From: Lytechinus pictus
Lineage: Eukaryota
Direction: 5' to 3'
DNA: 64,000 bases
Assembly (NCBI RefSeq): GCF_037042905.1
Contig: NC_087245.1
Location: 22,136,001 to 22,200,000, forward strand
Part shown: positions 18,176-41,100 of the stretch, piece by piece
How positions within the stretch are numbered: the stretch's first letter is position 1
Layout: each line of letters begins with the position of its first letter
Notes under the pieces: model-generated
Told to the model about the DNA's origin: nothing
Databases searched by the model: none
Seen by the model: the letters and a program-made list of their open reading frames with translations, nothing else
Translations under genes and position numbers: made by a program

Positions 18176-18199
18176 TCATCTCTGTCCATAGTCAGGTTC
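18176..18199 (-). CDS. Mucin terminal exon
   Basis: Strong acceptor TTTTTTTTTCAG|, then EPDYGQR and TGA. Confidence 0.7.
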   Translation of the reverse strand, partial: EPDYGQR

Positions 18200-18455: not shown

Positions 18456-21400
18456 GGTACCCCCACCCCTCTCACCCCCTAAATTTCGCATAAACGCACA
18501 CAAGCTACATCTATCTATATCCTACATATCTATCTTTATACCAAGTTATCCAGAGTCTATGTAAATTGTCTCAGTTATGCATCAAAAATGTACTTTCCCC
18601 TGCTATTTTAACTAAAAAATAATGTGTAATCTAACGTCTTGAAGTTAATGTAAACCAACAAATATTTTTAATGCGTTTCTTAATATACATGCGGGGGGGG
18701 GGGGTGAGATCATATATATAGGGGATCCACGCTCTACAAGCAATGCTTTTTAGTGGATCCCCTCATTTCCATACACGTTTTTTTACTGTTTATACAAGCT
18801 TTTGTTATATAATTATGCTGAGGTAAAATTGATTTTGTACTCGTACTTTGAGTTGTATCTGTATTTGATTTATATTTGTCATGGAAATGAAATAAACTTC
18901 TTGAATCTTGAATCATACCGGAAAGCCCTGATAGCCAGAGGGATCCATGGACAGACGTACTTCACTGTTACCAAATGAATAATAATTGCTGATTCGAGGT
19001 CGCTGAATCTTATACTACGAGGAAAATAAAACACAGAACATTCATTTAATAAATCTGTTGGGAGTTAGAAAAGTTTAAATGACATCGATTCGCAGAGAAA
19101 GGATTAGCCTCTTGTCGAGGCCCTGTCGGCTGCTTTCCGAGCGAACATGGCTAAGCAAGGGAGAGAGCGAAGCAGAGCGCCGCGGCCTAATTCGCTTCGC
19201 GAATTAGGAAATCCCTCGCTTCGCTCGGGAAGCAGCCGCCAGGGCCTCGACAAGAGGCTAAGAAATGATGACCTTCTGGTTCTAACAAAAGAAGCAAATT
19301 TATAAGGTATTTCATTTTATATTGATTTGGGGAAAATGCACTTTATATAGGAGAGCAATGAAAATCAACATTTAGATTTAACTGCTGCCTATACATGGTT
19401 TAAAATGAATGATACCTGAATGATTCATTTGCATTTTAAAAAATCAACTCGGAATGATGTATATGGAGAAGTTTTTGATAGTGATATAAATCTGAGTGAT
19501 TGAAGTAAGATTTATTAAATTTTAGTAATATTTCTCATTTAATGACTGATGCCATAATGGTTTTAATTTTCTGAAAGAAAATTCCTTATGAAAATTAATT
19601 ATAAATTTAAGGATGAATAAAACACTTCACTGAAATCCTCATAACAAGAAAAGTAATATGGCGATCGACAATAAAGTGAACTGCGCTCCCATTTTCATTG
19701 ATTTCACATGTTTTAGAATTCATTCCCTTCGTGGATCGTGAACACATGGGTAAAGCCTGAGTTACCCTGTGCCAAGGTGGGATTCGAATCTTGGTCCCCG
19801 TGATTCGAAGTCTGGAGGATTAATTTGCTATACCTCTTCATTCGTTTATGAAAACAAATCGGCATATTATATGATTAATCTGGTGTATGAAATTATTCAT
19901 TTTGTATGGCTTTATGTTGTGAGCACTGATCATTGCTGGAGAAGATTTTAAAAAATTACTCTCTTACACTTTCGTTATAATAAATAAAAATAATGAAGGA
20001 CTTGTATAGCGCACGTATCCACCGTGTTAGGTGCTCAAGGCGCTCTTATTACAGTGCGTCCCCCAAAAAACTATACACTTTTGAAATGGCTGCCCAAAAC
20101 AAAATATATCACTTTAGGGAAAAACACTTACATAATTATGGAAGCCAGTAAAGTCAACTTTCAAATAACACCAAAAAGTTGGAAAACTAGTCATGCTTGA
20201 GCGAGCACTGCCCACTGAAACAAAGGGTATGAAAATTAGGCTGGCTGGAATTAGCCTTCCAATTTCTGTCAGTTTTTGAGAGGCAAATCCTTTGGAACTT
20301 GCAAAGTTAAGGGCGTTGTGATAAATTAATGATCAACCGTGAACAGTTTTGGTTGTTTAAGCAAGTTTCATAAATTATTGAATTTAACTTTAATGCATGA
20401 GTGAACACAAATTTCACTTTTTGGGGGCAGCGTTTCAAAATTATCATGTGGATCTCATCAATGTGTTCATGGGAGTCGGGAAAATAGGGGTGAGATAGGA
20501 CTTAGATGGGAGAAGAAGGGTGATGGAATAAGGGTCAACAAAACATTTAGCCCCCCCCCCCCTCCCTCTCTCCCGCCCTCCCCTCCTGTTGAGTGACTGA
20601 TTGCTATTGTCATGTACGCGTGAAGTCCAGAGCAGTATGTTGATTTAATGATATTTTCCGAATTGGGGCATCAACTGTTTCCTATCAATCATAAATCAAC
20701 AATTTATCAATAAATCAACTATTTCAATGTGCATTGTGATCAATCAAACATTCAGTGTTTTCAATAAATTATTTCATAAATCATCATAATCAGTCAATAT
20801 CTTGGTAATCAAATTCAATGAAAAAAATGATTATCAGCCACCGGTCACTTCAGTGGCAGTTAAGTTTTGTATAGGCTACAATCCAGGAAGTGAGACAGAG
20901 AAAGGGGGGAGGCTGGGAAATGGAGGTGGAGGGGGATACATATGACTTTTAATTTGTAAAAGGACAAAAAAGAAGAGGAATGCCCTTTTAATCAAGTCTT
21001 ACCATATCTCGCCCTCTTGCTTGTAACAGGTACCATCACATTACTCTGACTCTCACGAACACACTGCCGAGGTCCACTAGATGAATATGCTACACTAAAA
21101 TTACAATTCCTGTTCACTCATGCATTAAATTTCAATTTCAATTTTCAATCCAATTTGCCTAAGAAACCAAAACTTATCTCATTCATTAATTTAGCATAAC
21201 ACCCTAAGCTTTGCAAGTTCCAAATGACTAACCACTCAAAAAACTGTAAGGCTAATTCCTGCCCAGCCTAGCCGAGTTTAGTCTCTCAGGAGGAGAGAAG
21301 TGGGGGGGGGGGTAGATATGGAGGAAGGGGTTGCTAAATGTTCTGTTGACCTTTATCCCATCAACGTACTTCACCTTCTTAAGTCCTATCCTACCCCCTA

Positions 21401-24400
21401 TTCTCCTGACTCTCATGAACACATTGCTGAGATCCACATGATAAAGTCAAAATGCTGCACTAAACATTGTATATCATGATCACTCATGCATTAAATTTCA
21501 ATTTAATAACGCATGAAATTTTCTCAAACAACAAACTGATCACAATTGATCATTAATTCATCACAAAACCCTCAACTTTGGAAGTTCCAAACAAAAAAAC
21601 CTGAAAGAATTTGGAAGGCTAATTCCAGCCCAGCCTAATTTTTTTGTTTCAGTGGGCAGTGCTCGCTCAAGCATGAAAAGTTTTCAAACTTGTTGGTTTC
21701 ATTTTAAAGTTGACTTTATTTTCTTTCTATATATATAAGTTTTTCCCCCCAAAGTGATATATTTTTTATTTGGCAGCCATTTCAAAAGTGTATAGTTATT
21801 TGGGGGGACGCACTGTATAACCCGGCTATGCTAGTCTACCGATTCCGGTGCTCAGACAGCTTTTTGAGGAATTACTTCCTGCCGGTAAACCCATTTACCT
21901 CACCTGGTTTGGGTGAGGGACACTATCATCGCTATCATCAGCATTGCTGAGGAATGGTTCAAGCTTGATATGTTCAGCAGCCGAATCGCCCCAGAACTCT
22001 GAATTAATCATCTCCTGATGAGATCCAGTATTTGAAGATTGAGAGTGACGCTTTGAAGAGTCATCGATCACTTCTAGTCCGCTTTCCTATAGGCAGCAAA
22101 TGAAAAGGGGGTATTGTCTTTTACCCACAGGTACTTAAAGGGATGGTCCAGGCTGGAGATAATTATATCTCAATAAATAGATTAAAATTCACAAAGCAAA
22201 ATGCTGAAAATTTGATCAAAATTGGATAAAAATAACGAAGATATTGAATTTTAAAGATTTTCATTATTCCAGTGAAACTGTTCTAGGCATGTATTTATGA
22301 ATATTCATTAGATGGGCTGATGATGTCATATCCCCACTTGTTCTTTTGTATTTTGTTATATGAAGTTAGGTTTATTCAAAAAATTTCTACCAACAACTAA
22401 AACAATTGGATTGACAACTGATTAAGTGCATTAATTATTTATTGCCGCAACTTATTACATCATAATGGAGACACATCATTTACACATGTATGAAAAATGA
22501 AACATTTATGATTTCATGTAATAACATAAGAAAAGGGAAAGTGGGAATGTGACATCATCAGCCCTCCTAATTAATGTTCATGACGATGTGAATATAACTG
22601 TTTTCTCAATATTGATACACTTTTAAAATTCAATAACTTCGTTATTTGTTATCCGATTTTGATGAAATTTTCAGCATTTTGCTCTGTGAATTTTACTATA
22701 TTTATTTATATATAAATATTTTCAATCCGGACCATCCCTGCAAGTTTTAAAGTGCCATCTACAACAAAGAAGACGAGATATTTTCTGGAGCCACGTCCAG
22801 ATGGCTAGATCTTGCCAAGTCGATTACGAAAGTTGCATGTCATTGAGAGATTTCTTTGAGAGAGATACGTGGGAGATAGCGATAATGAAATTCGCTATGG
22901 CGACGTTTAACTTTTATAAGTCGACTTAGCAAGATAACGTATCTCGCTATTTTCCGCTGCAATTATTTAACCATGAACTTCCAATTCATTTCAATTTAAT
23001 TCTTTATTTAATTTCAATTCAACCATAATACAAAGTAATATAAATGGGATATTACTTAACAGATTGACATTTTAAAGAAAAGCAGTATAAAATATAGCAG
23101 TGATGGGGTGACCATAATTTGCGCACATTTAAAAATTATCATGAAGTTGATTTTCAATCAAAAATTTCTCACAGTTCACACAAAATTAATCAAAATCATA
23201 AATACCAGATGAAAGGCAAGATTCCAAAGTCAAAATCGCTTGACGGAATTATAAAGTAGGTCAAGGGGTTCGCTCGTATCGCGATCTCAAAATTCCATGG
23301 CGATCGACTAGAGCGCGCTCGGCTGAAAAAGTGTCATAAAAAAGTGTGACCTTAATTTGCGCACGATCTTTTTGCAAAGCTTTAGAAAATAAATCAAGCA
23401 GCCAAAGGTAAGATAATCATATAATAGCTGGGGGTGAAAATGCCATAAATTCGGTTGGTATCACATTTTACTCACTTATTTGGAGACCTCTGCTTGCAAA
23501 TTGGCAATTTCTTGATGCTTGTCTAGAAGATCGGATTTTCTCGGAGCGGACGCAAAAGGTAACATAATTTGCCGATGTTTTGCCAATATTTTCACAATTT
23601 GAGACCTTACCTTCAAAATATTACCATACTGAGTAATTTTTGGGTAGCTTATATAACAAAATTCTGTTGGTGATATCAGTTTTTCAAGATATTAATTAGA
23701 TAAAGAGGTATTCGACCGTGTGCAAAATTAGGTAATGGCGAATTAAGGTCACAAGGGGACCTTTTCAAAAGAGAAAAGAAAAAAGGAAAGAAAATGAAAT
23801 GAAAGAGAAAGGGTGAAATATGATATCATTTTCTAAATATGTCAAAATCTATCACAAAATTTGAGTTTTGGAATAAAATATGTCAAACTTTTTGCTAGCT
23901 CGCTTCACTCGCTCCCAATTTGTTTTAAAAAAAATTTCCCGATACGCCATATCTTACCCCTCAAAATTTTTGGCTCGTTACGCCACGGGGGGGGGGTCCA
24001 TTTAAAACTGTGGCATACTTCCAGACTACAACTACTCACTCTTTTGCCCTCATGTCCAACACCGCCATTTTGTTTTTGTTTGGTGATAAAGCTGGATGAC
24101 GTCATATCGGTAGGACCATCCCCTTTGTTATAGATGTATGAATAAGGTCTTCGACGCTGTAGGATATCACCATTATCGATATCATCAATGGGCGGGAAGA
24201 TGTTCTCGTTGCCATTAACAAAACCGTGATTTTGAAAGGCATTGATGACGTCATCACCGTCTACGGATGATTTCCCCGTCCTTTCACATGTTTGGAATAG
24301 AAATAAGATAACGGTTTAGGATTTGATCTTAATTAGAAATGTGGCATAGTGTTTGGGAAAAGACAAGTACGTGCAGCAGTATCGTAATTTACTGCAAATT

Positions 24401-25787
24401 TCTCAGCACAGTTCATAAATTGAATTGAATTGAATCGGTTTCAAAGCAATAGTGTGTGTAATTTCTTCTTATAACAAAATAACATTTTTATTTTGAATAG
24501 CAGAAATGCTGCATTTCAAGCTAAACAAATAAAACAATACATAAGTTGAAAACCAATATTTAGTTTCGTTTAGTATCTTCGTTAAAACCCCCCTAACAAT
24601 AGGGTCTACGTCATGGACGGAAATCCCAGGGGGGGGAACAGGAGGACGCGTCCCCCTACCATTTGGAAAGGGGGGACACAATATCAAATGCCCCCTACTA
24701 TTTTGTGGTATTTCATGATGGGAAAAAAAAACATCATTCCTTTTGAAAGTGATTCCCTTTTTTTTCTTGCTTGTCAAATATACTTTGGACGAAATGACCT
24801 AATTTTTTTGCTTGTCAAATTTTCCGGGGGGAAAAAAATCCTTGATCCACCCCTGGTCCCCCCCCCCCTACCTTCGGGGAGAGATTTCCGCCCATGGTCT
24901 ACGGCTTCAACATATACGTTTAATAAAATGAAAGAGTGAAAATCAAACCATTGATATGCCAATAAAATCGCCAAATGAAAATATCAGTTATCACATTAAG
25001 GGAATTATCGTTGTTTTGTCCTTATCATTCCTTTCTTCTGTCTCATTGTTTTGCTTCTTGCTGATAGTGCAATTATCATTTGATACTTTGAAAATTTATC
25101 AGTAAATGTTATATGTTTCAATAAACAAAGCTAAAGTAAAGATAATTACTTCTCAGATTTGTCCATTGTTTTTGCATACAGATACCCAATAATTGAAACA
25201 AGGAGTACGAGCAATACAGCGCCCCCACACGAGCATCCAATGATCAGGTATGTTTGATCGACGTGATATTGGCAGTTGTAACCCCAGTACCATTCACCGT
25301 TGTTCCAATCACAGCTGAAAAGGAGAAGATAGAGGCAAATGTTAAGTTTCGGTGTATCAATAAATCACATTTTTTCACATTAAAGAGCATTTTATTGATA
25401 TTGAATTATTGCAAAACTTTTCACGTCATACATCCTCTTTTATCTTTGACTGTGATCATCACTTTAAAAAAAACAGGCGATCGCCCTAAATTGCCCTCAC
25501 CCACTTTGGACTGTCAAGTATGAGTTTTAGAGGCTTGTAAATCGCTGAATTTATATATCACTTCATTTGTTCAATCTGTATATATCACATTCCTATATCA
25601 CAAACTATGATATACTTGTAATATTTTTAACAGTGTTTCTTAATCACCGCTATCATTAATATAATTATGCATAATAGACCACACAGGTTCAACATTAGGA
25701 ATAACCCTAAGGAGAATAATGGGTTTATTCTGTTAATAGTAGAAGTTGTTAGGCCTATAGTGGTAGCAGCAGCAGCAGCAGCAGCAA

Positions 25788-25829
<42 letters not shown>

Positions 25830-25879
25830 CAGCAGCAGCAGCAGTATAAGTAGTAGTAGTATAGTATTTACTACTATTG

Positions 25880-25926
<47 letters not shown>

Positions 25927-25951
25927 GCCGCTAATATTATTATTATTAGAA

Positions 25952-26011
<60 letters not shown>

Positions 26012-26012
26012 A

Positions 26013-26083
<71 letters not shown>

Positions 26084-26099
26084 ATAGTAGTAGTAGTAA

Positions 26100-26185
<86 letters not shown>

Positions 26186-29100
26186 TAGTTAGCTTTGAAC
26201 CAGTGAGCTCACCTGCAGATTGGCCCCTCGTTCATGTCTTCTTGCCAACATATACCATTTTCGCTACAGTATTCTCTATCGGTGATGCATTTCGATTCAC
26301 AATTCAAGTAGCCAGTTTCACAAGTTTGATCGAAGCCAGATGGACAATTTGCATGTAAGTCTTGACTACAAATGTCACTTGTTTCTGAAGAGAATATGTA
26401 AAATAATGAGAACAAATGATGGGCAGGAGTAGGGGAGAAGTAGAAGGAGGAGAAAGAAGAAGAAGATGAAGGAGATGAAGAAGAAGAAGAAACTCGTATG
26501 ACTCGTATGGAAGTGATTTTCTGATTGAATAAGATGTATATTTAGGTTTTGTATTTCGCGAGCGAGCGTAGCGAGCGAGCGGTTCGGAAAAAATTCAAAT
26601 CTGAAGTTGTAAAACTCGCCTTTTGCTGAATCATGGACCTTGCGAGATGTTGCGAGCGCGAATCACAAGCTCAAACTTCAATTGGAAATTTCATGTAATT
26701 AGACATGAAAAGTAAACATTCCGAGCAGTTTTTGTAATCATGGAAAAGGGATGTGAATCCAACTAAAGAATTAACGCGAGCAAATGACTTCCTTTAGTGA
26801 CCCATGAATAGCGGCTACATATCTCACCAATCGAATAATGCGAGCGCGAAGCGTGAGCTGAATATTTGTGATATTCTAACCAGAAAACTGGACATGCTAC
26901 GCATTTTATTTTACCAGGAACAGAATGACTACCCTAATAAACAATAATTGGTGCGAGCGCAAAACACGAGCCCAAAATTTGTGATATTCCAACCTGAAAA
27001 TTGGACATTTTAAGCATGTTTGTATAAACAGGACGAATAACTAATACCAAACAATAATTGATGCGAATGCGAAGCGCGAGCAAAAAATGTTGTGTTTTTT
27101 AACCTAAAATGTATTTCAAAAGGGTTAATTCATTTTGAAAAAAAGGGAATTTTTCAATTTCAAAAAGTGCATTTTATTCCTATGAGGAATTTCATTGAAT
27201 GTGACTGCCCCCCCCCCCCGGTTCCGCCGCCCCTGACTGAAGTCCTTCCAATAAGAGAGCACTCGAGTTGCAAATAGGCCAACACGGATTAGAATCTTTT
27301 CAGTTAATTTTGTTTTTGTTTTTTATATTAATTCTCTAGCTCTTTAGATTTTTTTATCATTTCTCAGAAATGGACTTCTATCATCATTAACTTCTTTCTT
27401 TTCATTATTTTTTCTCACGTTTTCTTCTTCTTTCTCTCCATTGAATGTTCCTCATCGCAATCAAGACCGTTGACAATTTTTTTAATTGCAATTTATAAGA
27501 AACAACAACAAAATCAAACCACCAACGAACCTTCAGGTGGTAAGCAACTCCCACAATCATTTTCGATCGTATAATTTCCTAGTGTCCCATCGTCTACTGC
27601 TTTGCCAATGGTCTCGTCGTAGAAGTCTTGCGCCGACATCTTTCTTTCTTCCTCGGACATGCTGTTATACGAATACGTCACATTATGACTTACGATGACG
27701 CTTCCAGCTCTAGAAGATAAGATCATGAACGAACGAGAGAGACATTGACCTTTATTTTAAACTACAACGAAGTTGAAAGGCTACCTCAAAGACAATTATA
27801 ATAATAATAATATAGGGTATTTATATTGCGCACATATCCACCTTGTTCGGTGCTCAATTCGCCTTGATATATCAAATATATTAATTGATTATTTATCTAC
27901 TTTTTCGTTTCTGTATTCATTCAAGAATTTATTTATTATATTTCACTTATTTAAACATAATACTTGTTCAAATTTCAAATTTCGTGCTTTTCTTCTATTT
28001 CTATTTATTCACATGACATTGCACTCGACTGAGATATCCACCCCCCCCCCCCCCCTCCTGTTAAAGTAAATTGTGTGCATAATTATATTCAAACTAGTTG
28101 TGGTTCTGATTACTCTTTTCCATTTTGTTTATGGACATACCACGCTCAACTTTCATATTTTGAACTTTGAATCAGCTTGTATTAAATTCTGAAATTATCA
28201 AATGCAAGGTGGCGCTTCAGTTATCTTCGGAGTAGTAAAAATAAAAACAAGAAGGGAGCAAAAGGGAGAAAGAAATGAAATTGAATTGCTTAGGAAAGAT
28301 GGCACAAGACCTACAATTATTGACGTGAATTATTTCCCCCTTTTCTTCGAACCAATGTCATTACATTGTGGATCGTGTGAACATAATTATACTTACCTTA
28401 AGGCTACATCAACGGACACAAAGGCAATATTCACTTCATATAAAGCTTCCAACTAAATATAGACAAAATGAAGACACAATAATGTAAATATTAATAACAA
28501 AATAATCATGCATGTTAGAAAAACCATTGAAGATAGCTAAACTTCTAATAATGCACTTTAAATTTTGTTTTCTCCAGTATATACACGAAAAAAATTGAAA
28601 ATTTAAATCATCCAGCCTATATGGGGAAAATATTATTTTCAAACGAAAATGCATGTTTATGATTGGTTGAATTTTGGAGTTGCATTGGAGTAACTCGTCC
28701 TGCAATGGGCATTGTTATGGAGGGCTCACGTCATAAATTTTCGGCAGCACATAAGTCCGTATGAAAAACTCGACTTATGACTTTAACAATCACTTTTGTA
28801 GGTGGAGGCATAATAAAAACATAGACCGTAATCGTAGAAATCCTAACAAGCTTATCTTGTCGGCACGAATGACTTTCAATATATTTTTGTCGAATGTTAT
28901 TTTTTTCAAGGGGCCCTTTCACAGAGCTGATATTGACTTGTCTCGGGTAACAGTGTTAAAATCAGATTTTCAAACATGATGAAGTTGAAATATAGGCTTC
29001 TTGTTTTTAAAATGTGTTTAAAACCAAGATATGTGTCAAAATTAAGTCACACTTTGCTCAAACACTTGGAATGATATTCGGGGTGTCCCATTGAGCACAA

Positions 29101-32100
29101 GTACATGTTCCATTCGAAAGTAGGACCAAGCACATCCTTACTAACAGCTATATGTTAAAAGACATGCAATTATTTCGTGTAGAAAGTGTTTTATCATTAA
29201 AATCAATTACCTCCAGTGTGACGCTAATCTTGAAGGTTCGACATGCTTCAGTGGTAAGGTTGTCACTCGTACATCCCTCTGCCGAGTTCTCTTCTATCGC
29301 AATCTCAAATTGATAGGTTTTATTGAAATCTTCATCTAAATAAGAAAAAGGAGAAAACCCAACTTATTCTAAGTATACCTGTATTAGCCTTAATTACCTC
29401 TTTTGCAAAGCGCACAGAGATTCTGTCGAATATTATTTATGCGCTATATAAGCATCTATTATTATTATTATTATTAAGTCACAGAATTGGGTTAGGTATC
29501 TTTTTTTAAAGATTTCTATTCATGTTTTCGCCAGTTGACTGCATTGCTAATTGAATTCAAAACTACATATTTTTAGAACATATAACTATTTCAAGCCTCA
29601 CTTATGAACGCCACAGGGCGGGGGCAGGGGCGATCGTCCTCTTATTAAAAGTAGCATAAAAAACAGAGGGGAAAAAAAGAGTAAATGGAGGAAGGATTTC
29701 TTTTTTTTTTCGAAATGTATGTTCTTCTTGTCACTTACTTTTTTTGTCATGTTACTATTATAATACGGCTGTTTTTACTTTGTTATTACCTTACTTTTCT
29801 CCATTAATTATACCAATGATATGTGAATATTGTGATTATGTTTGCGACTGTAAAACCAATAAAACTCATAAATAAAAAAAAAAAAAAGAAGAGTATAAAG
29901 ACCATATGGTATCCCTGTAGGCCCAATTGAATTTAGAAAAAAAAATGTATCGTCACCGTGAGTTCGTCCTGCCCACCCAACCCTCTATAAAATGGTACAG
30001 TCCGTAATTCTGATGGTTCGTTATTCCGAATGTTCTTTATTCCGAAGGTTGGTAATTCCAAAACACGTAAATTGCCTACACCTCGCTATTCGTTAATCCG
30101 AAAACGAAAAAAGGTTCGTTATTATGAAGGTTCGTTAGTCCGAAAACGAAATAAGGTTCGTTACTTAAACCGAAGGTTCGTAAGTACATAAAAACAAAAT
30201 AAAGTTCATTATTCCGAAGGTTCGTTAATCCGAAATGAAATGAGGTTCCTTATTCCGAATGTTTGTTAATCCGATAAATTATACAATGTGTGGCGAAGCC
30301 GGGAAAATAAGAAAAGCAAACGTGGTTGGGGTAGAAACACAGTTGCTGTTCAATTTTTATGGGGATGGGAAGGCAGGGGCGACGGAACGTATTTTTGTTT
30401 GGGGGGGCAAAGCCAAAAGGGGCACTTATAACATGTCAAAATGGGAATTTTGGTGCAAACGGATATTTTCACTATGTAATTAATTTTGCTTGAAGTCGTT
30501 GTGTGTTTTTTAGTAGTAATTAAGTTGAGCAAAAGCTTTTTGAAGTGATTTCTGATTATGATAAGATTTATGTATAGGCTTTATTTTTTCCACGAGGGAG
30601 CGTGGCGATCGAGTGGTTTAGTTTTTTTTTGTCAAATCTGAAGTTGTAAAACTTGCTTTTTGGTTAAAATATGGCATCTAATTATTGTTAACAGGGCATC
30701 CTTGCGAGATGTTGCGAGCGCGAATTGCAAGATCAGACTTTTGGACATTTTGATAAGAAATGAAAATTAAGCATTCCGAGCAGTTTTTGTAATCATGAAA
30801 AGATTTGTATCGAACCAAAGAATTAATGCGAGCGCAAAGCGCGAACTGAAATTTGTAATATACTGACCAGGAAAGGAACCTGCATTGAGTGACTCATGAA
30901 TAAGATATATACTTCACTAATTAAATAATGCAAGCGCGAAGCGCGAGCTGAAAATTTGGGATATTTCAACCTGAAAACTGGACAGCATTTCTATAAAAAG
31001 ACACGGGGTGAGTACCTTACTAAACAATAACTGATGCGCGCGCGAAATTTTGTGGTTTTTCTAACCTAAAATGTATTATGTTGTACTTCAAATAGGGTAT
31101 TTCATTTCGAAAAAGGGCACATTTCCTTTGGAAATAAAGGCATTTTACATTTTGAAAAAGGATATTTTTCCTACGGGGAATTTTTGGGGGAGGGCAAGTG
31201 CCCCCTGTCCCTGGTTCCACTGCCCCTGTGGGAAGGGGCTGATCTATAGTTACCAGGGGCTTTTACGTACGTATAATTCTCTCAGAGGTGTGATCATAGG
31301 CTTATGATGTTAATTCATGTCATTGCCAGACCTGTCACTTTTGCTAGGAGAGTAGGCCCATTGATGCATTTTGAAATTGTTTTTGTCCAAGTTCGAAATT
31401 TCTACTAAAAAATATCAATTCCTAATTAATGTGTACCACTTACAAATCCCCCCAAATCACTCTGCGCGTGTGGGAATGTGGATTGTTTGGACCAGAATAG
31501 GAGCGATTAAGACCTCAAACAGGGACATTGATCCCCTTTTTGGCTGGGGTGGGCAAAACAGCCACCACACAATGATCTCATGGTGAAAATATTCGTTTGC
31601 ACCGAAATGCCCATTTTGACATATTATAAGTGCCCTTTTTGGCTTTGCCCCAAAACAAAGATACGTTTCCCTACCTTCCCATCCTCATAACAATTGAACA
31701 ACATCGGTGTTTCTCCCCTCCCCCCCCCCCCCCCCCCAACAGCTGCCCTTCCTGTTTTCCCGGCTTCGCCACAGATTATTTCATTTTTCGGATTAACGAT
31801 CTCATTTCCGGATTAACGAACCTTATTTCGTTTTCAGACTAAAGAACCGCAGAATAACAAACCTTATTTCGTTTTCGGATTAACGAACCTTCGGAATTAT
31901 GATCCATCGGAATTACGAACCTTCGGAACAACGAACCTTCGGAATATTCGAACCTTCGGAATAACGAACCTTTGGAATAACGAACGTAACCCTATAAAAT
32001 ATATCCTTGCGAAATCCGTTTCAAATAATTATGACATATGGCATATGTTAAAATAGGCCCCTCTCTCCATCTCTCGCTCCCTCTCTCACTGTCTCTTTCT

Positions 32101-38100: not shown

Positions 38101-41100
38101 AAATATTTTGAGGACTGCTTTCCAACTTCTTCTAAGCAATTCTCTCACAAATTTAAGAAAAGGACAGAGGGATTTCTTAACTTTATGCACACTTAAACTC
38201 TAAACCTATTTCCGTCCGAATAATTAATCAAATACGTTCGCTGCAGTTTCATTCCATCTTGCATAATTTCATGTTATTGAAAAACAAATGTTACCCTTTC
38301 TGTGGCAAAGTTTTGATCTATAAGACTGTATATCAATTTATCAATGGATAAATATTTGACTTAGGGGCGTCGAAGTGGAGGTCTGTTCAATAAAGAAGAC
38401 ATAAAGATAACAAAATTACTTTTAAAAAATGAATGTGAAATATATATCGTCATGATCTTTGGTCAACAAATCTTTGAAATGTAAGCGATCTAGAAAGATT
38501 TGGGGGTAAACCTCGAAACTCTAAAGAGGGATGGCTTGCTGGTATAAGGAGTTCACATTATTCGCATGTAATTTATGACATACCCTCCCCCATACCACCG
38601 TATGACTATTATTTTGATAATGATAATAATTCACAACATTTATTACAGCGCGTACCACAAAGCGCTGGCTTTGCAAAATGAAATAAAAATAACACTTTGC
38701 CCCTTTAATTACTCTCATTTTATAGTACTTTTTCCTTTATTGCTGAAGTTAGGAAATAACAGTCATAATACAAAAGAAAGAAAAACAGTTATAATACAAA
38801 CACCTTCAAGGTCTGTGCTCTACATACACATAAAATACACATGTATAAAATACACATGTATAAAATACTTAGATTTGAGTTATGATTAATTTTTGTACTC
38901 ACAGATGACTTACATTCAATTCATTTGAAAACAAGTATATTAGGTAATAATAATAATAATAATAGACCGTTCTAGTATAGCATATATCACATTATGAAAA
39001 ACGCCTCAATGCGCTTAAAAAGGACTGTAGCTCAAGCAGCCTTCCAGCGCTCAGTGCATTTCAAGGAATAAATTCCTGCCAGGTACCCATTCACCTCATC
39101 ATCTGGGTTGAGTGCAGCACAATGTGGATAAATTTCTTGCTGAAGGAAACTACACCATGGCTGGGATTTGAACCCAGGACCCTCTGTTTAAAAGTCTGGA
39201 GACTAGTCCACCGGGCCACATTGCTCAACGTTGTAAGTGTGGAATATGCTACAATTTATTTTTTTACAAAATAATTTTTGCTGCATGAACTAAATAAGTG
39301 ATTTTATGGAACCTCTCTACATGTCATAAATTGAAAATACTTGGCAGGACCATGAAGTCAACACTTGAATATTGAAGAACTCGTTATCTATATTTGTCAA
39401 GTTTCGGTTCGGCTCATCAACATTCCACTCTTCTGGCCTTGAAGTATGATCCATAAACCCAAATAATTCATATAAAAAATTAAATTAATGACGATAAAAT
39501 GATAGAGTCAGCGTATATATGTTTGTTTTTTTATTTCATAATTGCAAACACTAATATTTATCATGGCATCGTTTTATATGGAATTGTTTTTTAGCACTGC
39601 AGGTTTTAAGAGACGAAACGTGAAAAAAGGCTTACACCCTAAACTCAAACATGGGAGACAGCCAGAAAAAAAAACGGTCGGCGACCAAATAGACCCGAAT
39701 ATTCGAGTCGGTCTGACAGCGATTCTGAGGTCATGTGACCAAAATATTTCACAGTCCTCCCCTTATTACTTCGATTAACGAGTATTTTTTTATATCTTGT
39801 GAATGTTTTTGTTTTAATTTCTTTCATTTTGAAGCATTAATCCAATATACTGCTTACAAATCAATTTGCTACAAGGCTTCGTATTTATTTATTTTTTAAA
39901 TGCGCATGAAATTTGAATTACCCCCCTTCCGCCCCCCAAAAGAAAAAAATTACGTTGAATGAAATATACTTCCTCAGGGGCGGATCCAGCTTTCGCAAAT
40001 AGAAAGGGGGGCGAAGAAAAGTTCACCCATATTTTCCCCGATCGGCCGCTCAAACTTGATTTTTGTTTGTTTCTTTGAAGGGGTATAGTACTAACAGTCA
40101 CTGCATGCTTAATTTCATTCTCATAAAACAACATAAATTACATATTCTCATCAGCCCTAATTGAATAGTGCATGCTATTTTCTTTTCTTTTTTATTTCAC
40201 GTATTTTGTCCCGAAAACTGAACATTCTGAGCAATGTTTCTGATCCTGAACAAGATGCCTATGTAACTAAATAAATTGGATATGGATCGCACGTAATAAA
40301 TGAAGTTCAAGCTAATGAAATTTTGTCATTATATGAAAATGTTGTTGTTGTTGTTTTAGCTTAAACAACAACAACATTTTCATATAATGAAACCAACAAC
40401 AACATTTTCATATAATGAAAATGATGACTATCTTCCTAAGTATTCTTCTTCCCAAGCGCGAGATGAAAAAATAACGATATAATTATTAGGAATTCATGAT
40501 GTTTACTTACCTTATTTTCTATTCTAGTAAGCCTAGTGAGAGCGCGAAATTTGTTGATATTAAGGCCTGTAAATTGGACATTTTAAGCACTTTTGTAATT
40601 ATGAATAGGATGCACGGGTATTATATTTTTAATAATTGATGCAAGCGCAAATCAAAAGATGCCATGAAAAGGGGATTTAAAGTAGCTTGTTAGAATATAG
40701 AGGTATATAGCTCACCAATCAAAATGCGAGCGCGCAGCGCTAGCTGATACGTTTTGACAATCAGACCTGAAAAGGGATATTTTGATAAAAGCAAATAATG
40801 CGAGCGCCCAGCTCGAGCTGAAAATTTTACAGAGCACTCTTTTAAAATAAATTGGTAAATCAAACAAAAAAATGAAAGCTCGATGCAGAAATGCATTTTG
40901 TATACTGACTTCAACTGTTCAAAACTTGATGTTTTAAGCTCCATATCAGCCTATTGAGCAAGATATGTATTTTATCGAACAAGCAATGCGAGCACGAAGC
41001 GCGAGCGAAAATTTGATATAGTGACAAGAAAGTATTTTTTTTTCTTCATTTTACAAGACTTCCCCTATAACCTTATTTTATTTACTCGTCTTTCTCCCCT

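Follow-up and report, generated by a model that had tools for sequence, protein, structure and literature searches.

A truncated SINE as the probable source of the working splice donor of exon 10 in a mucin-3A-like gene of the sea urchin Lytechinus pictus

Mobile elements that bring their own splice site to a host exon have been described in mammals, where de novo 'type 5' insertions in NF1, a 5'-truncated AluYb8 in exon 12 (10a) and an L1 in exon 39 (30), carry donors inside the Alu or L1 sequence that replace the natural donor (PMC3219598, PLoS Genet 2011), and where canine merle results from a short interspersed nuclear element (SINE) at the PMEL intron 10/exon 11 boundary, with a 15-bp duplication holding the original splice site (PMC7349775). 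Copied exon–intron junctions are also known from the amphioxus 'mirages', exon–intron minisatellites of tandem units in which the first, original site stays in use (PMC3087553), and CORE-SINEs relevant to echinoderms include Pami of Patiria and Styp of a coral (PMC5804259) as well as the sea-urchin families SP-4/5/6 and SINE2-4c_SP (PMC4758252). The locus considered here lies in a window of 64,000 nucleotides from Lytechinus pictus (contig NC_087245.1, positions 22,136,001 to 22,200,000), numbered from its first letter, which holds a mucin-3A-like gene on the minus strand. A SINE appears to have landed on the donor of exon 10 of this gene, supplying a new in-frame donor and adding six residues to the protein, with a duplicate of the old donor left behind as a relic and a DNA transposon later entering the SINE, a reading to which a probability of about 0.8 is attached.

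With the NF1 type 5 alleles this locus shares a donor within element sequence, element bases in the spliced RNA and use of the new donor (here in one spliced contig and in RefSeq models), while an ancestral state with the natural donor is suggested here at the protein level, by three outgroup species. The NF1 alleles cause disease and lose the 3' part of the exon, whereas the urchin insertion would have fallen at the junction itself, costing no host codon and keeping the frame, and is common to two species. Merle, too, involves a SINE that sits at the edge of an exon, contains a splice site and lengthens the protein in frame (by 52 amino acids), but it concerns the acceptor side, an antisense SINE, an original site that is partly used, and a polymorphic allele with a phenotype; the urchin case concerns the donor side, a sense SINE and six residues, and is apparently constitutive. 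An unused copy of an exon–intron junction within an intron recalls the mirages, although two junction copies flank the urchin SINE, neither is used and there is no tandem array, which sets the locus apart from them. Compared by eye rather than by computed alignment, the SINE segment around the donor follows the part of the printed Pami and Styp consensus sequences that comes right after the tRNA head (PMC5804259); Pami as printed has no GT at the place of the donor, whereas the Lytechinus family has a near-consensus donor there and a different 3' tail. The mechanism is already known from NF1 and merle, and the urchin case is not a new one; no echinoderm case of a SINE-supplied donor was found in the literature searched, Repbase entries and subscription papers lying outside its scope.

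The exons were read from the window on the minus strand and joined by coordinates, giving a 12-exon model of 2421 nt with GT donors, AG acceptors and a single terminal stop, the product of which, from residue 39 onward, contains RefSeq protein XP_054758411.2 (P0004, 'mucin-3A-like', Lytechinus pictus) without a single difference. The encoded protein comprises a signal peptide, Ser/Thr repeats, SEA-like and EGF-like parts, one membrane span and a tail of ∼190 residues, the end of which is formed by exons 10–12 (Table 1). This is the layout of the transmembrane SEA/EGF mucins (MUC3/12/17, IMPG2-like), and the nearest Atlas clusters are of MUC3/12 type (0.95), with SEA in 69% and 14% of cluster members, although the urchin protein differs in that no Pfam family is assigned to it at E 0.1. 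The SEA part is taken to be such from the Atlas resemblance and a GSVIV motif.

Exon 10 closes with CACCCAAACCAG, beginning at 21915, and the donor GTGAGGTAAATGGG follows at 21903; AACGAAAGTGTAAGA stands at 19976. From 21902 on, the sequence resembles a longer SINE copy at 39 kb in the same window (blastn, 77% over 61 nt, E 1.5e-5), in which the donor position carries a 3-nt insertion, and nhmmer with the core of that copy matches 21925-21843 (E 1.2e-5). The similarity passes the splice junction into the coding sequence: upstream of the donor GT the ungapped match to the 39-kb copy is 10/12, 13/18 and 15/21 before it drops to 16/30, with empirical P values, the CAG being left out, of 1e-3, 3e-4 and 1e-4 for the first three, and the homology extends 12–21 nt into exon 10. 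A further SINE copy, in a metagenome contig (L003), shares the donor motif and, from 21918 on, is 86% identical along 43 nt. Where four public runs were aligned to 18460-24400, reads of other SINE copies, 2080 in run X21 and 645 in run X24, fit as far as 21915 and then continue as SINE, unlike the exon, while gapped extension of the homology beyond 21916 was not significant against random, coding and shuffled controls (P 0.18–0.29). The extents of the matches, the ends of the reads and this null extension together place the start of the SINE at ∼21915-21925, and the working donor of exon 10 lies inside this 5'-truncated SINE.

The SINE is now divided by a non-autonomous DNA transposon, presumably of Tc1 type given its TA and CAGTG signature, with terminal arms 95% complementary over 19 nt and no open reading frame over 78 amino acids. 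Reads of other SINE copies bridge the insert, joining 20049 to 21821 (109 in X21, 127 in X24) or to 21856 (447 in X21, 746 in X24), so that the two halves belong to one SINE; L003, too, passes the insertion point uninterrupted. Without the insert the SINE fragment measures ∼177 bp. The long arms of the transposon (∼530 bp) are only 79.5% alike, suggesting that both insertions, SINE and transposon, are old. One arm contains an internal direct repeat with a period of ∼367 bp, which gives three related units within the transposon as a whole. Near the transposon, 69 letters at one end of a contig from a related organism (run X11, record 1) do not align, and this organism may lack the element.

At the level of RNA contigs (one contig), the donor at 21903 is used. 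Letters 423-604 of this contig, which has 1897 nt and a depth of 30 (run X4, record 10), fit 21904-22085, and letters 605-846 fit 24039-24280. The match to exon 10 ends exactly at 21904, not at 21899 or 21922, and 422 letters remain downstream, the expected place of exon 11 (96 nt), exon 12 and the 3' untranslated region; the type 'RNA' of run X4 is a program's guess, but exons 9 and 10 are joined in the record with no intron between them. All five Lytechinus RefSeq proteins fetched, which are gene models and not independent tests, read PHPNQ and then YKIQRP. Scored with a matrix from the other nine donors of the gene, a crude model with a leave-one-out range of 1.0–10.2, the SINE donor reaches 8.4, the relic 3.1 and the upstream old GT -3.6. 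Read-through past the exon 10 donor meets a stop at codon 63, two codons beyond the donor, which rules out productive use of the relic from exon 10. A second GT in the SINE (21898-21893, minus strand), 5 nt behind the working donor, scores 8.6 and is out of frame; with the read-through stop, this leaves the donor at 21903 as the only one to give the full-length protein.

The state of the exon before the insertion can be judged from homologues, for which searches gave 3 proteins from 91 candidates, 4 from 3806 and 56 in a profile-free whole-library search; ten distant ones were fetched. The orthologue in Strongylocentrotus purpuratus, 53% identical over the C-terminal 415 residues, has DDNDS directly before YKIQRP or FKIQRP and no PHPNQ there, and the upstream end DDSDDS of Lytechinus aligns with this DDNDS if one extra Asp codon is allowed. 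From a Pro (PFL/PMV/PIL) to the Tyr or Phe of the KIQRP/RIQRP motif there are 10 residues in S. purpuratus (two proteins), Acanthaster planci and Amphiura filiformis, as against 17 in L. pictus and L. variegatus, so that exon 10 would have grown by VPHPNQ plus one Asp; the longer exon is, on these protein comparisons, the derived state and common to both Lytechinus species, whose exon 10 is identical in the last six residues and in 56/61 overall. Lytechinus and Strongylocentrotus separated tens of millions of years ago. A search of 284 candidates for short fragments of the orthologue in other urchins gave none, so the insertion is dated only to between the Strongylocentrotus split and that of L. 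pictus from L. variegatus.

The old junction appears to survive twice. Among the 128,000 positions on the two strands of the window, the pattern N-[DE]-S followed by GT has a single match, at 19976, immediately after the SINE tail; composition would predict 1.5e-5 matches per position, or 4e-7 with the following RAG. The other copy of the old GT (21921-21920) lies exactly 18 nt before the working GT, and of the 11 nt that end with it, 8 are the same in the relic site, among them all of the last five (P 0.013 in an anchored null test on the DNA alone). Since the old exon end is still present in the exon, and the exon is seven residues longer than in the outgroups, the relic would be a second copy of the junction, most readily understood as the one that a target-site duplication of 11–14 bp, covering the old donor, left on the downstream side. 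A single substitution would separate the relic from the outgroup end; for the upstream copy, a substitution (Asn codon to Ser codon) plus the duplication of an Asp codon would be enough. The DNA contig X11 record 1, which has single-copy depth, fits 19510-20045, an indication that the related organism from which it comes also has the SINE tail and the relic region.

Much of this had been anticipated from the DNA alone. The original prediction quoted the three sequences above at the places where they stand, and held that the working donor came from a 5'-truncated SINE, borne out by blastn, nhmmer, the ungapped match and the reads of other copies; that this donor rescued the frame, in keeping with an exon of phase 0/0 and GTs 18 nt apart; that the site behind the tail is a relic of the old donor, to which the outgroup NDS and the single pattern match now speak; and that the transposon came later, as the TA on both sides and the bridging reads suggest. 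None of the three conditions that it named as refuting it turned out to hold, the S. purpuratus orthologues having no PHPNQ at that point, the SINE homology passing 21903 and the spliced contig ending at 21904. Of its '(Y)NES' for the old exon end, NES is confirmed by its counterpart NDS in S. purpuratus, while the supposed Tyr codon is indistinguishable from the (ATT)n tail of the SINE.

Several observations weigh against this account of the locus. The joint 19014/21904 is not among the 15 joints listed of 751, and raw RNA run X21 has zero depth on exons 9 and 11, with X24 at ∼1–2x on exon 9 and no junction count from either. The duplication signal in the DNA alone is modest, with test zones picked after inspection, and three other SINE copies, themselves old and with ends set by eye, have no clear duplication (anchored scores 2, 5 and 3, against 6 here). 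The Pro from which the spacing was counted is the analyst's choice, and eight of the ten distant homologues, having no motif, were left out of the count; Holothuria P0008 fills the inserted alignment columns, and the spacing from FWG to Tyr is 27, 27, 33 and 31, variation which implies that the tail tolerates insertions and deletions nearby. The position of the S. purpuratus donor right after Ser is deduced from protein.

In the version first put forward, the SINE came to lie a few codons ahead of the donor, no duplication being visible, and its bases replaced the old end, (Y)NES giving way to HPNQ at similar length. The relic's likeness to the outgroup exon end and the three other copies with no clear duplication suit this version, but it now seems improbable, for the exon still reads DDSDDS and then GT, in alignment with the outgroup DDNDS; the spacing is 17 residues and not 10; the left and right pieces together would make an ancestor longer than every outgroup; the match of the two 11-nt sites speaks for a duplication; and SINE homology beyond ∼21925 is not significant by the same extension test. 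Equally improbable is an origin in two steps, in which a short mirage repeat doubled the junction in tandem and the SINE afterwards entered between the copies, making no duplication of its own. Mirage units of 10–72 bp are described for amphioxus (PMC3087553), but here Tandem Repeats Finder reports no array, there are only two junction copies, abutting both ends of the SINE, the upstream one has none of the intron bases after GT expected of a mirage unit, and two events are invoked where one suffices.

A SINE that starts further upstream, near the Phe-Leu codons (∼21955), would make the whole acidic stretch down to the Gln SINE-derived, and draws on a short stretch that MAFFT aligns there with the 39-kb copy and on the difference between SNA in Lytechinus and DRY/DHY in S. 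purpuratus. It is very unlikely: anchored gapped extension does no better than the controls, on which ground the acidic stretch upstream of 21925 was judged not to come from the SINE, reads of other SINE copies cease fitting at 21915, compensating frameshifts would be required, and DD-x-D-S is conserved with the outgroup. That the donor is SINE-derived and the downstream site a chance look-alike is just as remote, since, common as GT-RAG is (157 times in the window) and middling as the relic is among nearby GTs (30th of 131 by donor score), it stands directly behind the SINE tail, is the sole such match in the window and agrees with an outgroup peptide that was invisible to the author of the prediction.

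Under the favoured reading, that of a SINE landing on the donor with target-site duplication, exon 10 in the ancestor of L. pictus and L. variegatus, after the S. purpuratus line had split off, would have ended in Asn-Asp-Ser|GTAAGA. A SINE would have inserted in the sense orientation of the gene by target-primed reverse transcription, staggered cuts duplicating ∼11–14 bp that spanned the last three to four codons and the GT; the overlap suggests that the copy, 5'-truncated inside its CORE-like segment, was joined at a TGT microhomology. The upstream junction copy, losing its +3 to +6 bases, would have been dead as a donor, and splicing would have switched at once to the CAG|GTGAGG of the SINE, which, lying exactly 18 nt further on, held the frame and gave the cytoplasmic tail six residues; the gene would have stayed intact because the SINE carried its own in-frame donor. 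The downstream copy would have kept the full old donor behind an in-frame stop, as a silent relic. An Asp codon was presumably doubled afterwards, and the new six-codon stretch would have diverged from its SINE source; the TA-targeting DNA transposon that now divides the SINE also came later.

Table 1. Features of the exon 10 donor locus (window positions)
Feature	Position	Strand	Remarks
Exon 9	24040..24280	-	contiguous with exon 10 in X4 record 10
Exon 10	21904..22086	-	183 nt, 10th exon, phase 0/0, cytoplasmic tail; X4 record 10 fits 21904-22085 with 0 differences
Exon 11	18919..19014	-	96 nt, begins YKIQRP; motif conserved to starfish and brittle star
Exon 12, coding part	18176..18199	-	EPDYGQR and stop, last 7 residues; RefSeq proteins
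Upstream junction copy (putative)	21920..21933	-	Ser-Asp-Asp-Ser codons and old GT (21921-21920), which has lost its donor function and is part of a Val codon
VPHPNQ-coding segment	21904..21921	-	18 exonic nt, at least 12 SINE-derived; first 2 are the putative old GT, overlapping the TGT microhomology with the SINE
Working donor CAG|GTGAGG, in SINE core	21898..21906	-	score 8.4; same motif in SINE copy L003
5' half of 5'-truncated SINE	21816..21921	-	no tRNA head; begins inside CORE-like segment
DNA transposon, non-autonomous	20052..21815		1764 bp; TA duplicated at 21817-21816 and 20051-20050; ends CAGTG
3' half of SINE	19977..20049	-	(ATT)n-type tail; 81% to copy at 27857-27800; nhmmer E 5e-7; tail alignment
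Relic donor, downstream junction copy (putative)	19962..19976	-	Asn-Glu-Ser codons, GT at 19967-19966, then AAGA; score 3.1
39-kb reference SINE copy	38945..39230	-	longer; tRNA-like head with B box, same core, diverged tail

The SINE family is dispersed and has (ATT)n tails. Apart from the exon 10 copy, there are others at 27.8, 29.4 and 39 kb and one in L003; those at 27864-27800 (minus strand) and ∼29420-29476 (plus strand) are truncated tails in introns 5 and 3 of the mucin gene. In DNA run X11 the summed contig depth in the bin of the donor is 88,833, against 21–33 in unique bins, a figure that is not a copy number. The tRNA-like head of the 39-kb copy, absent from the truncated exon 10 copy, scores 17 bits (E 0.75) with the Rfam tRNA model, below its gathering score of 29, and ARAGORN reports no tRNA. 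A first metagenome scan gave 0 loci, its gap setting missing the commonest spacing; a second gave four, one being the SINE copy L003 and three being bare motif matches in GC-rich DNA, and a scan of viral contigs gave 0 matches. L003 (385-550) lies in an AT-rich metagenome contig, and its core is truncated at nearly the same point as that of the exon 10 copy.

Elsewhere in the gene, 51661-51556 (minus strand) is the likely first coding exon, with a signal peptide, 35 codons and phase 1; it is in frame with exon 2, is identical to the L. variegatus N-terminus at 18/35 residues and is absent from the L. pictus RefSeq model, which starts at the Ser/Thr exon. In the stretches 34431-33547 and 32949-32761 (minus strand), the L. 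pictus RefSeq versions P0001 and P0004 differ in the number of 17-residue Ser/Thr repeats, in an 8-residue insertion or deletion in exon 3 and in several residues of the SEA region, and these differences are allelic variation between assemblies. The donor of exon 11 (18919-18913, minus strand) is weak and followed by an in-frame stop, and the RefSeq models splice it to the short exon 12 (18199-18176). A (AGT)n repeat of ∼400 bp (25768-26189) starts 24 nt behind the exon 7 donor, and a long palindromic insert in intron 10 (19260-19107), just upstream of exon 11, is repetitive in the aligned runs.

The effect of the insertion is most likely neutral tolerance in a disordered tail, a lucky one-in-three rescue of the frame rather than an adaptation. 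Reads of many copies, together with L003, place a near-consensus donor in the conserved core of the SINE family, which raises the speculative and rather doubtful prospect of the family as a mobile donor: truncated sense copies would have exchanged or extended the donors of many Lytechinus exons, and a relic donor would remain from each event as a target-site copy. If so, splice sites in echinoderms would have shifted by a route common to the whole SINE family and datable against related genomes, and the six added residues, beside a conserved Tyr-Lys-Ile-Gln-Arg-Pro motif, could have come under selection. Within its scope of one gene and six residues, the case offers an unusually complete record of the loss and replacement of a splice site in what would be a single step: both copies of the old site, its successor, the codons gained and the state in the outgroups can all be read. 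The published cases compared here are recent disease or breed alleles in mammals, whereas the urchin allele is common to two species and evidently tolerated, and it illustrates that a short in-frame insertion at the end of an exon can be SINE-derived and, in a protein alignment, be mistaken for an ordinary insertion or deletion.

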